IMG/VR virus record: IMGVR_UViG_648276671_000011
Strand: one strand, 5' to 3'
Length of the DNA: 4,392 nucleotides
From: a virus
Taxonomy: Duplodnaviria; Heunggongvirae; Uroviricota; Caudoviricetes
Shown here one piece after another: positions 1 to 4,392 of the stretch (the stretch's first letter is position 1; each line of letters starts with the position of its first letter). Made by a program: the position numbers and the translations under genes. A model generated the notes under the pieces. The model had not been told where the DNA came from. It saw nothing but the letters and a program-made list of their open reading frames with translations, and searched no databases.

Positions 1-149
1 AATCGAAATCGACACCGAAAAATAAAACATCAAGTCATATCAATATATTGCATTGGTGGTGATGACGAATAAAAATGCAAAAACTAGCCTTTTTCCGCGA
101 TGCTCCCGCCCCGTGGCAGGGCACCCCACAAGGAGGACCCGCCATCACT

Positions 150-491
150 ATGGAGGCCATGACCATGACCATGACCATGACCATGACCATGACCATGACC
201 ATGACCATGACCGAGACCGAAGCGCTCGGGATAATCCGCAGTATTACCGGAATCAGCCAGCAGGCTGGCGAACAGGAGGCCACGCAGCCGGACAGCGTGA
301 TAGCCGAAAATTACGCGCGTGTTGTTGCTGAGGTGATGCGCCGTGATGGTATTGAGCTTAACGGCGTGGATATGCGCAACATACGAACCAGAGTCCTTGA
401 GTTGCTGGCATACCGTCGCCGTTCTCAACAACGGAGGGAGAGCGCGAAAAGTACTTACCAGTGGAAGAAGCCGGAACGACTGCGGCGGTAA
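150..491 (+). CDS. Hypothetical small protein (113 aa from ATG150; 138 aa if ATG75) with N-terminal (Met-Thr)9 repeat and a basic Arg/Lys-rich C-terminus
   Basis: ORF-track frame 75..491. AGGAGG at 131..136 lies 13 nt upstream of the in-frame ATG at 150. Downstream sequence (...ARVVAEVMRRDGIELNGVDMRNIRTRVLELLAYRRR...) is protein-like. Three other frames also read through the repeat (53..331 +, 35..283 -, 84..431 -), so strand and frame are not certain. I do not recognise the family. Confidence 0.45.
   Translation: MEAMTMTMTMTMTMTMTMTMTETEALGIIRSITGISQQAGEQEATQPDSVIAENYARVVAEVMRRDGIELNGVDMRNIRTRVLELLAYRRRSQQRRESAKSTYQWKKPERLRR
158..211. repeat. Perfect hexanucleotide microsatellite (CATGAC)x9, with one degenerate unit at 212..217
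   Basis: Directly counted: nine identical CATGAC units, 54 bp. Encodes (Met-Thr)n in the frame of the 150..491 ORF. Confidence 0.97.
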
Positions 492-675
492 CTTGCTGAT
501 ATTCCCGATAACGCAAAATTGCGTTGGCTGGTGGGTGAGTTGCAGATTTGCAACTCGACCATGAAACTACGGAAACTACCCGTAGTTTGGGTAGTAAGAG
601 TAACACCCAGATTTTGGGGCTTACTCGCGATACCCAAATAAAGGGTATCGGTGGAAGAAATATCGTTTCTCATAT

Positions 676-714
676 GTAAGTACCGAGGGCGGAATTCCGC
701 CTTCGGTTACTTAT
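676..714. repeat. Long imperfect inverted repeat (about 17 bp stem, one bulge) centred on the perfect 14-bp palindrome GGCGGAATTCCGCC (688..701)
   Basis: Hand base-pairing: 688..701 is its own reverse complement; flanks 676..687 pair with 702..714 with one bulged T and two G-T pairs. Confidence 0.6.
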
Positions 715-732
715 TGTGCTCATGCACAGGGA

Positions 733-793
733 GGGGCGGGTCAAAATCTCTGTACCCTGACGTCTTCAGGACTGCCCGCCCCATCGATTTTTT
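733..793 (+). terminator. Candidate intrinsic terminator: GC-rich stem GGGGCGGG (733..740) / CCCGCCCC (775..782) with a large loop, then T6 (788..793)
   Basis: 8-bp G/C stem enclosing a ~34-nt loop that has its own small hairpin (CCTGA..TCAGG); T-run starts 5 nt after the stem. The loop is larger than a classic terminator, so this is tentative. Confidence 0.3.
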
Positions 794-1048
794 ATACCCG
801 CGAAAAATGAAAAACGCTTCACGCTGGTGGGCCTGATGCCGATATGGGGAGCCGCATACCGGAGAATATCCACCAGCACGGCAACAGCAGAATAGCCCCG
901 ACACAGAAAAACCACGAATATGGGGTTTTTGTTATGGCATGGTCATGATGACCGCCCCTGCTCTGAATGGTGGAAATCACCACGCAGATCATCCACCAGC
1001 TTCATGACGGATAGCCGGAAAATGATAATGATTAAAGCGTGTTGATCT

Positions 1049-1075
1049 TTGTTCGCGGTTGTTCGATATTGTTCG
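1049..1075. repeat. Three copies of TTGTTCG at exact 10-bp spacing (1049, 1059, 1069)
   Basis: Direct reading: tTTGTTCGcgg TTGTTCGata TTGTTCGtga. One helical turn between copies, as in phased binding-site arrays. Confidence 0.6.
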
Positions 1076-1081
1076 TGAAGC

Positions 1082-1105
1082 GGTGTAGTTAATGGTGTAG
1101 TTAAT
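1082..1105. repeat. Perfect 12-bp tandem duplication GGTGTAGTTAAT x2
   Basis: 1082..1093 is identical to 1094..1105. Confidence 0.85.
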
Positions 1106-1115
1106 ATCACTGTTT

Positions 1116-1143
1116 TTGACGGGCTTGTTATTTGCAACATAAT
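1116..1143 (+). promoter_or_regulatory. Candidate sigma70 promoter upstream of clpS: -35 TTGACG (1116..1121), 16-bp spacer, -10 CATAAT (1138..1143)
   Basis: Hexamers read by eye; would give a ~130-nt 5' UTR before clpS. An inverted repeat TGATAG-N4-CTATCA (1178..1193) lies inside that leader. Not validated. Confidence 0.3.
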
Positions 1144-1278
1144 GAAAAATAAAGACTAATTAACTAAATGATATAAATGATAGTTATCTATCATGTGGAG
1201 TAGATTGGTCAGGCAAATAAGCTCTTGTCAGCGGCAGGGCGTTCTGCCGATAACCGTAACCGAAGATGATAACTGACA

Positions 1279-1599
1279 ATGGGTAAAACGAACGACTGGC
1301 TGGACTTTGATCAACTGGCGGAAGAAAAAGTTCGCGACGCGCTAAAACCGCCATCTATGTATAAAGTGATATTAGTCAATGATGATTACACTCCGATGGA
1401 GTTTGTTATTGACGTGTTACAAAAATTCTTTTCTTATGATGTAGAACGTGCAACGCAATTGATGCTCGCTGTTCACTACCAGGGGAAGGCCATTTGCGGA
1501 GTCTTTATCGCCGAGGTTGCAGAAACCAAAGTGGCGATGGTGAACAAGTACGCGAGGGAGAATGAGCATCCATTGCTGTGTACGCTAGAAAAAGCCTGA
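1279..1599 (+). CDS. clpS: ClpS, ATP-dependent Clp protease adaptor (N-degron recognition), 106 aa
   Basis: Translation [51 protein letters not shown]... matches enterobacterial ClpS as I remember it. 30-nt gap to clpA, typical of the clpS-clpA operon. Confidence 0.95.
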
Positions 1600-1629: not shown

Positions 1630-3906
1630 ATGCTCAATCAAGAACTGGAACTCAGTTTAAATATGGCTTTCGCCAGAGCGCGCGAGCACCGTCATGAGTT
1701 TATGACCGTCGAGCACTTGTTACTGGCGCTGCTCAGTAACCCATCTGCCCGGGAGGCGCTGGAAGCGTGTTCTGTGGATTTGGTTGCGCTCCGTCAGGAA
1801 CTGGAAGCCTTTATTGAACAAACCACACCCGTTCTGCCTGCCAGTGAAGAGGAGCGCGACACACAGCCGACGCTGAGTTTTCAGCGTGTACTGCAACGTG
1901 CGGTCTTCCATGTCCAGTCCTCCGGTCGCAATGAGGTTACCGGTGCAAACGTTCTGGTCGCTATTTTTAGCGAACAGGAGTCGCAGGCGGCATATCTGTT
2001 GCGTAAACATGAAGTCAGCCGTCTCGATGTGGTGAGCTTTATCTCTCATGGCACGCGTAAAGACGAGCCGACACAGTCTTCTGATCCTGGCAGCCAGCCA
2101 AACAGCGAAGAACAAGCTGGTGGGGAGGAACGTATGGAGAATTTCACGACGAACCTGAATCAGCTTGCGCGCGTGGGAGGAATCGACCCACTGATTGGTC
2201 GTGAGAAGGAGCTGGAGCGTGCTATTCAGGTTCTCTGCCGTCGCCGTAAAAACAACCCGCTGCTGGTGGGGGAATCTGGTGTCGGTAAAACCGCGATTGC
2301 GGAAGGTCTTGCCTGGCGAATTGTTCAGGGCGATGTGCCGGAAGTGATGGCTGACTGTACGATTTACTCTCTCGATATCGGTTCTCTGTTAGCGGGCACA
2401 AAATATCGCGGCGACTTTGAAAAACGTTTTAAAGCGTTGCTCAAGCAGCTGGAGCAGGATACTAACAGCATCCTGTTTATTGATGAGATCCACACCATTA
2501 TCGGTGCGGGTGCAGCCTCTGGTGGCCAGGTCGATGCGGCTAACCTGATCAAACCGCTGCTCTCCAGCGGTAAAATTCGCGTAATTGGTTCGACAACCTA
2601 TCAGGAGTTCAGCAACATTTTCGAGAAAGACCGTGCTCTGGCGCGTCGCTTCCAGAAAATTGATATTACTGAACCGTCGATCGAAGAAACTGTTCAAATC
2701 ATCAATGGCCTGAAACCGAAGTATGAAGCGCACCACGACGTGCGTTATACCGCAAAAGCGGTGCGTGCAGCGGTAGAGCTGGCGGTGAAATACATTAACG
2801 ATCGTCATCTGCCGGATAAAGCCATTGACGTTATCGACGAAGCGGGCGCTCGCGCACGCCTGATGCCGGTAAGCAAACGCAAGAAAACCGTTAATGTGGC
2901 GGATATTGAGTCCGTGGTGGCCCGTATTGCGCGCATTCCAGAGAAGAGTGTTTCGCAGAGTGACCGCGATACCCTGAAAAACCTCGGCGATCGCCTGAAA
3001 ATGCTGGTCTTCGGTCAGGATAAAGCCATTGAGGCGCTGACTGAAGCCATTAAGATGGCGCGTGCAGGTTTAGGTCACGAACATAAACCGGTCGGTTCGT
3101 TCCTGTTTGCAGGCCCTACCGGGGTCGGGAAAACAGAGGTGACGGTACAGCTTTCGAAAGCTTTGGGCATTGAGCTTCTGCGCTTTGATATGTCCGAGTA
3201 TATGGAACGCCATACCGTCAGCCGTCTGATTGGTGCGCCTCCGGGATACGTTGGTTTTGATCAGGGCGGTTTGCTGACTGATGCGGTCATCAAGCATCCA
3301 CATGCGGTGCTGCTGCTGGACGAAATCGAGAAAGCGCACCCGGACGTGTTCAATATTCTGTTGCAGGTGATGGACAACGGTACGCTGACCGATAACAACG
3401 GACGCAAAGCGGACTTCCGTAACGTGGTATTGGTGATGACCACCAACGCTGGGGTACGAGAAACTGAGCGTAAATCGATTGGTCTTATCCACCAGGACAA
3501 CAGTACCGATGCGATGGAAGAGATCAAGAAGATCTTTACGCCGGAGTTTCGTAACCGTCTCGACAACATTATCTGGTTCGATCATCTCTCCACCGACGTG
3601 ATCCATCAGGTAGTGGATAAATTCATCGTCGAGTTGCAGGTTCAGTTGGATCAGAAAGGTGTTTCTCTGGAAGTGAGCCAGGAAGCGCGTAACTGGCTGG
3701 CCGAGAAAGGTTACGACCGGGCAATGGGCGCACGTCCGATGGCGCGTGTCATCCAGGACAACCTGAAAAAACCGCTCGCCAACGAACTGTTGTTTGGTTC
3801 GCTGGTGGACGGCGGTCAGGTGACGGTTGCGCTGGATAAAGAGAAAAATGAGCTGACTTATGGATTCCAGAGTGCACAAAAGCACAAGGCGGAAGCAGCG
3901 CATTAA
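1630..3906 (+). CDS. clpA: ClpA, ATP-dependent Clp protease ATP-binding/unfoldase subunit (two AAA+ modules), 758 aa
   Basis: Translation from ATG1630 ([24 protein letters not shown]...) matches E. coli ClpA as recalled. Walker A motifs GESGVGKT and GPTGVGKT are present. GGAGG at 1619..1623 sits 6 nt upstream of ATG1630; the ORF-track start at 1615 is a TTG and is less likely. Confidence 0.97.
2122..2136 (+). promoter_or_regulatory. clpA: Internal ribosome-binding site GGGGAGG (2122..2128) plus in-frame ATG (2134..2136, Met169) for the shorter ClpA65 form
   Basis: SD-like GGGGAGG 5 nt upstream of internal Met169 codon (seen). Internal initiation at Met169 producing a truncated ClpA is established for E. 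coli ClpA. Confidence 0.6.
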
Positions 3907-4118: not shown

Positions 4119-4206
4119 GTTCACTGCCGTACAGGCAGCTTAGAAAGCCAACCGAAAGAAAAACTCGATTTTTATACCGTTCACTGCCGTACAGGCAGAT
4201 AAAATG
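4119..4206 (+). CRISPR. Orphan type I-F mini-array: repeat 1 (4119..4146, GTTCACTGCCGTACAGGCAGCTTAGAAA), 32-bp spacer (4147..4178, GCCAACCGAAAGAAAAACTCGATTTTTATACC), degenerate terminal repeat 2 (4179..4206)
   Basis: 28-bp repeat with the Cas6f-type hairpin core CTGCC-GTACA-GGCAG matches the E. coli/Yersinia I-F repeat consensus from memory. Second copy is identical for 20 nt then degenerates. Spacer length of 32 is typical. No cas genes in the window. Confidence 0.85.
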
Positions 4207-4249: not shown

Positions 4250-4267
4250 TGGCGGTGAGGGGGGATT
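4250..4267 (-). pseudogene. 3'-terminal fragment of a tRNA-Ser(GGA)-like gene (acceptor 3' strand plus part of the T-arm); the rest of the tRNA is not present downstream
   Basis: TGGCGGTGAGGGGGGATT is the reverse complement of ...AATCCCCCCTCACCGCCA, the 3' end of E. coli tRNA-Ser (serW/serX type) as recalled. From 4268 the sequence no longer follows the tRNA, and no complementary acceptor 5' strand (CCTCACC on +) is found in the next 125 nt. Confidence 0.5.
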
Positions 4268-4392
4268 GACTCGCTTCGCTCGCCCTGCGGGCAGCCCACT
4301 CACTGTGTTCGTGGTCTGTCCAACTGGCTGCGCCAGTTGTCGAACCCCGGTCGGGGCTTCTCGATCCCCCCTGGAGTGCAATATGCGAAAAA

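Follow-up and report, generated by a model that had tools for sequence, protein, structure and literature searches.

Upstream of clpS, in a 4392-bp stretch of Escherichia coli DNA (hereafter, the window) that contains clpS at 1279–1599 and the end of clpA at 3906, two kinds of short direct repeat lie side by side, and the question is which process they serve. The original prediction took them for an array of cooperatively bound or iteron-like sites that would place clpS-clpA under regulated expression. Our analysis indicates that they most probably belong to attR, where they would serve as accessory protein-binding sites in what is the P arm of attP; the element concerned is a phage-inducible chromosomal island (PICI) that resembles EcCICFT073 and is located between yljB and clpS. 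The grounds for this reading, the proteins that may occupy each motif, and the competing explanations are set out below.

Two Types of Phased Repeat Upstream of clpS

Exactly three copies of the heptamer TTGTTCG were present in the window (1049–1055, 1059–1065, and 1069–1075), always on the + strand and with the starts exactly 10 bp apart. A degenerate fourth unit in the same phase, GTGTTGA, preceded the three perfect heptamers at 1039–1045. After a gap of exactly 6 nt (1076–1081) behind the last heptamer, a perfect tandem of GGTGTAGTTAAT began, with one copy at 1082–1093 and the other at 1094–1105. The sequence of the window around both repeat types is cTTTGTTCGcggTTGTTCGataTTGTTCGtgaagcGGTGTAGTTAATGGTGTAGTTAATatcactgttTTTGACGggc. 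Among 2000 dinucleotide-preserving shuffles of the window, none contained a 7-mer repeated three times at 10-bp phase (0/2000), and none contained a perfect 12-bp tandem of two copies (0/2000). The phased repeats are real, and chance is ruled out as their origin; both the spacing of the heptamers and the 12-bp duplication were recovered at exactly the coordinates first described for them. An Rfam scan found no RNA family matching the repeat region. The features of this part of the window are as follows.

1–1176, + strand: right-hand end of an EcCICFT073-like PICI, a phage satellite of ~10.8 kb in its integrated state, as judged from distribution and gene content
729–812, no strand assigned: cos-like packaging site, identified by its match to phage ends
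1039–1075, + strand: phased array of four units (GTGTTGA and TTGTTCG ×3), proposed sites of an AlpA/Vis-type recombination directionality factor (RDF)
1082–1105, + strand: tandem pair of 12-mers (GGTGTAGTTAAT ×2), proposed integrase arm-type sites, the P-arm pair of attP, here in attR
1116–1143, + strand: candidate sigma-70-like element, TTGACG-16-CATAAT, agreeing with the consensus at 10 of 12 positions, located in the island and facing the core and clpS
1161–1173, − strand: IHF-consensus match TATCATTTAGTTA with a single mismatch, a candidate bending site only, in the A/T-rich stretch that separates the core from the arm sites
1177–1194, no strand assigned: attR core ATGATAGTTATCTATCAT, an imperfect inverted repeat (ATGATAG/CTATCAT) with a 4-nt center

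A consensus scan of the window for IHF sites gave six matches, which is not above the chance level (3.6 expected), and no convincing IHF site was found among them.

At the far end of the window, the interval from clpA to the serW region contained two direct repeats of the CRISPR-DR4 family (type I-F-like), at 4119–4146 and 4179–4206, with one spacer between them. One of the two scored 50.1 bits with the Rfam model, which is above the gathering score, and the second scored 29.7 bits; there were no cas genes in the window. An RtT-like element on the − strand (4250–4385; 44.9 bits vs. a gathering score of 45), annotated as “RtT sRNA” in some RefSeq genomes, occupied the place that is taken by tRNA-Ser directly after clpA in other strains.

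The Repeats Lie Inside the Right End of a Mobile Island

To the 301-bp query taken from window positions 1000–1300, 5425 of the 5426 complete E. coli genomes gave a match, mostly only from query base 174 (window ~1173) onward. The whole query was covered in only 366–367 of the 5426 genomes (~7% of complete E. coli), and at least 80% of window 1–1300 was covered in 134 of the 5426. K-12 (L002) and most other strains have an empty site, in which the match to the window begins at ~1173, and in K-12 the small gene yljB and cspD are located immediately upstream of that point. Strains with a match to the whole window have an insert of ~10.8 kb, which separates yljB from clpS.

The 18-bp core was found at both ends of the island and once in the empty attB of K-12. 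Its consensus across attL, attR, and attB is ATGATAGTTAT(C/T)TATCAT, and the three contexts are gatagATGATAGTTATCTATCATgtgg for the K-12 attB, gatagATGATAGTTATtTATCATctag for the attL of L001, and tataaATGATAGTTATCTATCATgtgg for the attR of the window. Because base 1188 is T in attL and C in both attR and attB, the crossover lies to the left of 1188, and the island boundary falls at 1177–1187. The stop codon of yljB is inside the core and is kept intact. With respect to this boundary, the repeats sit 70–145 bp inside the right end of the satellite, in attR.

In L001 and L017, the island encodes int, alpA, an Icd-like protein, a DUF927 primase, SSB, a second AlpA-like protein, a DUF4222 protein, a lambda E-like capsid protein, a D-like decoration protein, and a Nu1-C-like small terminase (TerS). 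Gene content of this kind has been described for the PICI EcCICFT073, and the island also has iterons 3′ of its primase gene and a cos-like site. Judged by its size of ~10.8 kb, its int-alpA-pri/rep organization, its packaging and capsid genes, and its own attB, the island is a PICI. The iterons form a field of at least 10 copies of TAACCCGCA/TGCGGGTTA directly 3′ of the DUF927 primase gene (L001 16155–16472), which is presumably the replication origin of the island; PICI origins have been reported 3′ of the primase gene. Units similar to these iterons also occurred near the right end of L014.

Besides the cos-like segment and the attR arm, the part of the island that falls in the window includes a conserved hypothetical ORF, with its annotated start at 207 and its stop at 491. 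The cos-like segment is 90–94% identical to the physical genome ends of SfII and ST64B, matches the annotated “cos-site” of phiP27, and is probably the cos site of the satellite. This match hints at helper phages of the SfII/ST64B packaging type, despite the lambda E/D-like capsid genes. A hexanucleotide repeat, (CCATGA)9, was also observed at window 157–210, at the 5′ end of ORF 207–491. Each of its units has an in-frame ATG, which may give a (TM)n N-terminal extension, and the copy number is polymorphic, with nine copies in the window vs. three in L001 and L017.

One Composite Module Occupies Both Arms and Recurs in Related Islands

In L001 (41 kb), + strand clusters of TGTTCG were located at 10370/10380 and 10443/10453 in attL and at 21013/21023/21033 in attR. 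GGTGTAGTTAAT with at most one mismatch was found at 10485–10508 and 21045–21068, with no other copies, and both motifs clustered solely at the two island ends, on one strand. Each arm carries a single composite of ~70 bp in direct orientation, namely four 10-bp-phased units, a 6-nt spacer, and two tandem 12-mers. The four units are GTGTTGA and three copies of TTGTTCG in attR, and TTGTTCG, TTGTTCG, CGGTTTG, and TTGTACG in attL, where two extra GTGTTCG units lie beside the core. The 12-mer pair in the attL of L001 ends 24 nt ahead of the ATG of int, a P4-type tyrosine integrase gene.

Homologues of the integrase were detected in 1217 E. coli genomes. The search for homologue loci on species-representative genomes gave one Shigella locus, and the diversity of the islands was sampled from E. 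coli genomes. Islands at the following six attB sites were compared.

yljB/clpS: the window, L001, L003, and L017
abgR/smrA: L004
roxA/phoQ: L005–L007
rcnR/thiM: L008
tqsA: L011 and L012/L015, capsid-forming PICIs (cf-PICIs)
yifB: L013/L014, a cf-PICI

Each of the eight islands in which both arms were examined had exactly two tandem 12-mer pairs, one in each arm (8/8), and a phased heptamer array was located ahead of every 12-mer pair in the related islands. Conservation of the phasing, which had been proposed as a check on the original prediction, was therefore observed across related islands, but it is tied to the mobile element and is independent of clpS. The cf-PICIs L011, L012, and L013 carry genes for an HK97 capsid, protease, portal, HNH, TerS, and TerL. 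Their int/alpA/att modules are nearly identical to those of the EcCICFT073-type PICIs (L004 and L006), and the recombination module therefore appears to have been exchanged between both satellite types.

The 12-mers Follow the N-Terminal Domain of the Integrase

The island integrase contains an Arm-DNA-bind_3 domain (PF13356, E = 1.4e-16, residues 8–96) in addition to PF00589. The 12-mer covaried with the N-terminal 100 residues of Int, in that three N-domain classes corresponded to three 12-mer classes, also in the arm 10–14 kb away from int, although these three classes are not fully independent phylogenetically and represent few independent events. In class 1, in which the N-domains are at least 76% mutually identical, the 12-mer is GGTGTAGTYAAT, and position 11 was A in 20/20 copies. 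Class 2 (L008, with an N-domain ~60% identical) has TGTGTGGTCAGT in both arms. Class 3 comprises cf-PICIs with the N-domain SVKYLTSGK, and its 12-mer ends in ..AYT (..ACT or ..ATT) in 10/10 copies; this ending was also present in attR arms ~14 kb away from int, the flanks of which are otherwise identical to those of class 1 arms. The heptamers were constant across all three N-domain classes.

A natural chimera was found in L013. The N-terminal 100 residues of its integrase (12875–14104) are 91% identical to those of L011, a tqsA cf-PICI, and the rest of the protein is 98% identical to the integrase of L004, from the abgR/smrA site. The 12-mers of the L013 island (including L014 1052–1075) follow the N-domain, i.e., they belong to the class of the swapped part. 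This island lies in yifB, in an attB that resembles the smrA-site attB (..GCGGATATGAATAT.. vs. ..TCGTGAATGAATAA..).

In the GenBank record of P4, the 12-bp repeats annotated as “attP arm sequence repeats” form two tandem pairs, of which one lies across the core and the other 15 nt ahead of the int ATG, and P4 Int has been reported to bind DNA close to its transcription start. Because of the P4 layout, the covariation with the N-domain, and the L013 chimera, we assign the 12-mers to Int, as putative arm-type sites that would be bound by its N-terminal domain. The four 12-mers of each attP would be occupied by the arm-binding domains of Int, which would bridge the arms to the core as in the lambda and P4 intasomes.

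The Heptamers as Candidate AlpA Sites

The alpA product matched Phage_AlpA (PF05930, E = 8e-18), and this protein shares 40% identity with Vis, the excisionase of P4 (E = 1e-19). In EcCICFT073, AlpA activates its own promoter, and AlpA overexpression leads to int-dependent excision (PMC6092414). RDF operators in general are direct repeats that are one helical turn apart and are cooperatively bound (PMC7498355), and the array in the window has this spacing, with three perfect units and one degenerate unit in exact 10-bp phase.

Across the loci of 27–41 kb, phased runs (at least three units, exact 10 bp) were found only in the att arms and in the intergenic region between int and alpA. The intergenic arrays contain 3–6 units on the opposite strand and were present in L001, L004, L006, L012, and L013; by chance, 0.1 run would be expected in each locus. 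The arrays located, with units TTGTTCG, TTGTTCC, or TTGTTTC, are listed here.

L001, 12047–12071, opposite strand: int-alpA array
L004, 7187–7243, opposite strand: int-alpA array
L006, 17280–17326 and 17540–17566, opposite strand: int-alpA arrays
L013, 14133–14189, opposite strand: int-alpA array

These arrays are probably AlpA operators at an autoregulated alpA promoter, and an AlpA motif in this position would account for AlpA autoregulation. From the sequence comparisons and by analogy with known excision systems, we infer that the heptamers of the arms are sites for an AlpA/Vis-type excision factor. Covariation between the heptamers and AlpA was weak: the arms of group A carry mostly TTGTTCG, those of group B carry mostly TTGTTCC or TTGTTTC, but TTGTTCG was also found in group B, in the arrays that precede alpA. 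According to this assignment, a winged-helix protein of the AlpA family would bind the phased TTGTTCG units cooperatively, head to tail. Its binding would bend the DNA and help to place Int on the adjoining 12-mers, and AlpA would drive excision once a helper phage switches alpA on. In EcCICFT073, the expression of a Pint reporter was unchanged by AlpA (PMC6092414), which gives no sign that AlpA bound in the arm next to int would affect transcription.

The second AlpA-like protein (L001 18794–19177) was also considered as the heptamer binder and was rejected. L001 and L004 share this protein under a single accession although their arm heptamers differ, and no gene of this kind is annotated in L003, L008, or the cf-PICIs.

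Comparison With Known Attachment Sites

The attP of P4, with the arm repeats of Pierson and Kahn, resembles that of the island in several respects: the integrase is of the P4 type with Arm-DNA-bind_3, one tandem 12-bp pair immediately precedes the int ATG and another lies across the core, all in one orientation, and the RDF (Vis) belongs to the AlpA family. In contrast, the P4 integrase is only 23% identical to that of the island, the P4 12-mer (ANTGGGGGCAYA) is unrelated in sequence to GGTGTAGTTAAT, extra inverted and intragenic repeat copies are present, and the core and attB are different. Furthermore, a consensus for the int promoter overlaps the 12-mers in P4, and none such was seen in the island. 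Directly upstream of the int-proximal 12-mer pair of P4 (L016 3966–4010, − strand), we observed four 10-bp-phased units ending in TCC (tTCGTCC, gTCTTCC, gTTGTCC, and aAAATCC); these may correspond to the heptamer array and are candidates for Vis binding.

The attL of KplE1/HK620 has the same order of elements as the island, with RDF sites followed by Int arm-type sites and then the int ATG, and its integrase has the same arm-binding Pfam domain. In KplE1, attL overlaps the regulatory region of int. In footprinting of the KplE1 attL, TorI occupied five cooperative sites with the core GTTCG/GATCG, which fall into two blocks, and one block consists of three 8-bp sites 2 nt apart, i.e., in 10-bp phase. 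In the text consulted, TorI sites are described for attL alone, whereas the island has heptamer arrays in both arms. The arm sites of IntS are a different, TTTTACCC-like motif, KplE1 integrates at a tRNA gene, and IntS is 22% identical to the island integrase. Because TorI is only 27% identical to the island AlpA (44 residues), the resemblance in GTTCG could be coincidental.

The attP of lambda comprises P and P′ arm sites, X1-X1.5-X2, and IHF sites. A heterobivalent integrase bridges the arm and core sites, and three RDF protomers are bound at ~10-bp phase beside an Int arm site. The scale is comparable to that of the island, with sites ~80–150 bp from the core, but the family of the integrase arm domain and the motifs differ. 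The Xis sites of lambda are confined to one arm, whereas each arm of the island has an identical copy of the composite module.

EcCICFT073 and related PICIs share with the island the order int, alpA, Icd-like, pri-rep, E-like capsid, D-like decoration, TerS-like, and cos, and L004, which is of the EcCICFT073 type with another attB, has the same arm module. In EcCICFT073, AlpA has been described as a helper-induced activator needed for excision, and experiments on this relative have shown its induction, excision, and packaging by a helper phage. These relatives differ from the island in their site (abgR/smrA vs. yljB/clpS) and in their integrase, which is 75% identical. In the PICI and cf-PICI literature searched, we found no description of the arm repeats.

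Alternative Explanations for the Repeats

We considered whether the two motifs might have been assigned the wrong way round, with the heptamers as the arm-type sites of the integrase and the 12-mer pairs bound by AlpA or another island protein. The P′ arm sites of lambda (P′1-P′2-P′3) are likewise three direct repeats ~10 bp apart, and the last base of the heptamer varies somewhat among island groups. However, where the Int N-domain diverges (L008 and L011–L013), it is the 12-mers that change, in both arms, and the heptamers are unchanged. The annotated arm repeats of P4 are tandem 12-mers in corresponding positions, the heptamer arrays upstream of alpA fit a regulator better than an integrase, and L006 and L012 have AlpA proteins that are 90–100% identical, yet their 12-mers differ. 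We regard the reversed assignment as quite unlikely. The minus-strand ORF at 943–1140 (65 aa), in which the repeats would encode the peptide LTTPLTTP, is uninterrupted in the window as well as in the L003 arm, which is 91% identical, and a hypothetical protein is annotated at this position in a few RefSeq genomes. It is left without annotation in most genomes, stop codons interrupt its frame in L004 and L006, the corresponding arms of which keep the DNA repeats, and the repeated peptide is a trivial outcome of the 12-bp tandem in the DNA. That this ORF is a real gene is extremely improbable, and the doubt originally expressed about it was well founded.

The reading with which the locus was first presented, an array of transcription-factor operators controlling the native clpS-clpA promoter, draws on the position of the repeats 10–70 bp upstream of a good sigma-70 consensus aimed at clpS, and this promoter-like element was found only in clpS-site islands. 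It is nevertheless very improbable. The repeats are carried, within a mobile island, by only 366–367 of the 5426 genomes, and both they and the promoter-like element are missing from ~93% of E. coli (~5060/5426), K-12 included. Identical modules flank the islands at abgR/smrA, roxA/phoQ, rcnR/thiM, tqsA, and yifB, and the same module lies beside int at the opposite end of the island. The −35 element placed at 1116 does belong to a sigma-70-like consensus, but this is island DNA and not the native clpS promoter. Same-face phasing does suggest cooperative protein binding, as was first proposed; the iteron half of that proposal did not hold, as the island has iterons of its own that differ from the heptamers (TAACCCGCA). 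As iterons of the island origin, the heptamers would correspond to the type-1 repeats of P4 crr/ori (TGTTCACC), which they resemble in TGTTC and which lie near the P4 attP, crr being adjacent to it. Against this, the primase gene is already followed on its 3′ side by a separate dense field of TAACCCGCA/TGCGGGTTA, islands with replication proteins that differ beyond a shared N-terminal domain have the same heptamers, this shared domain does not track the heptamer groups, and the heptamers are symmetrical in both att arms. We consider a role as iterons highly unlikely.

A Promoter-Like Element Between the 12-mers and the Core

The element at 1116–1143, located between the 12-mers and the core, was the sole sigma-70 consensus match within 850–1300. 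It was also present, in a slightly weaker form, in the second lineage at the clpS site (L003), and it was not found in the arms of islands at the five other sites. Consensus scans of the + strand found no sigma-70 consensus in the part of attL that extends from the core to the int ATG and no consensus promoter in the yljB-clpS interval of K-12. A literature search covering an island at cspD/clpS, yljB, and a mapped clpS promoter returned nothing useful. We think it unlikely that the element would be a functional outward promoter driving clpS-clpA, perhaps modulated by Int/AlpA on helper induction, or would act as an int promoter after excision. If it did, ClpS/ClpAP proteolysis or int expression would be coupled to the integration state of the satellite.

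An added role for the repeats, compatible with their reading as att-arm sites, is that the Int/AlpA sites also serve as operators of this outward promoter, which would drive clpS-clpA while the satellite is integrated, or int after excision joins the arms. This role has in its favor that the element is the only consensus promoter in the arm, together with the result of the attL scan above. It also has a precedent in KplE1 and P4, for which overlap of the int promoter with the att site and autoregulation by Int and the RDF are documented. On the other hand, the sites are located upstream of the −35 element, which suits activation or no effect and not repression, and the promoter consensus is missing at the five other sites, and therefore it is not a general device for int expression. 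The added role is doubtful.

Significance for PICIs of E. coli

Returning to the att-arm reading, we conclude that the repeats, located in an att arm of a mobile island, most probably serve the integration and excision of the satellite and not the native control of clpS. They are an ordinary part of the tyrosine-recombinase attachment site in a known satellite family; which protein occupies which motif we infer from comparison between islands. If clpS were affected at all, this would be a side effect of the outward-facing promoter-like sequence of the island. A false lead is thereby removed: a hidden phased operator array for E. coli clpS-clpA is without support, because the repeats belong to a mobile satellite.

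The advance is incremental and not surprising. It provides a sequence-level map of the recombination module that is common to the PICIs and cf-PICIs of E. coli at six chromosomal sites, comprising the core, four putative integrase arm sites, and candidate arrays of the AlpA type, which are located in each arm and ahead of alpA. Within this map, a natural case of domain swapping links the 12-mer to the N-domain of the integrase. The map helps to delimit satellites in genomes, and it raises the hypothesis that AlpA may be a direct excision factor in addition to the transcriptional activator already described.
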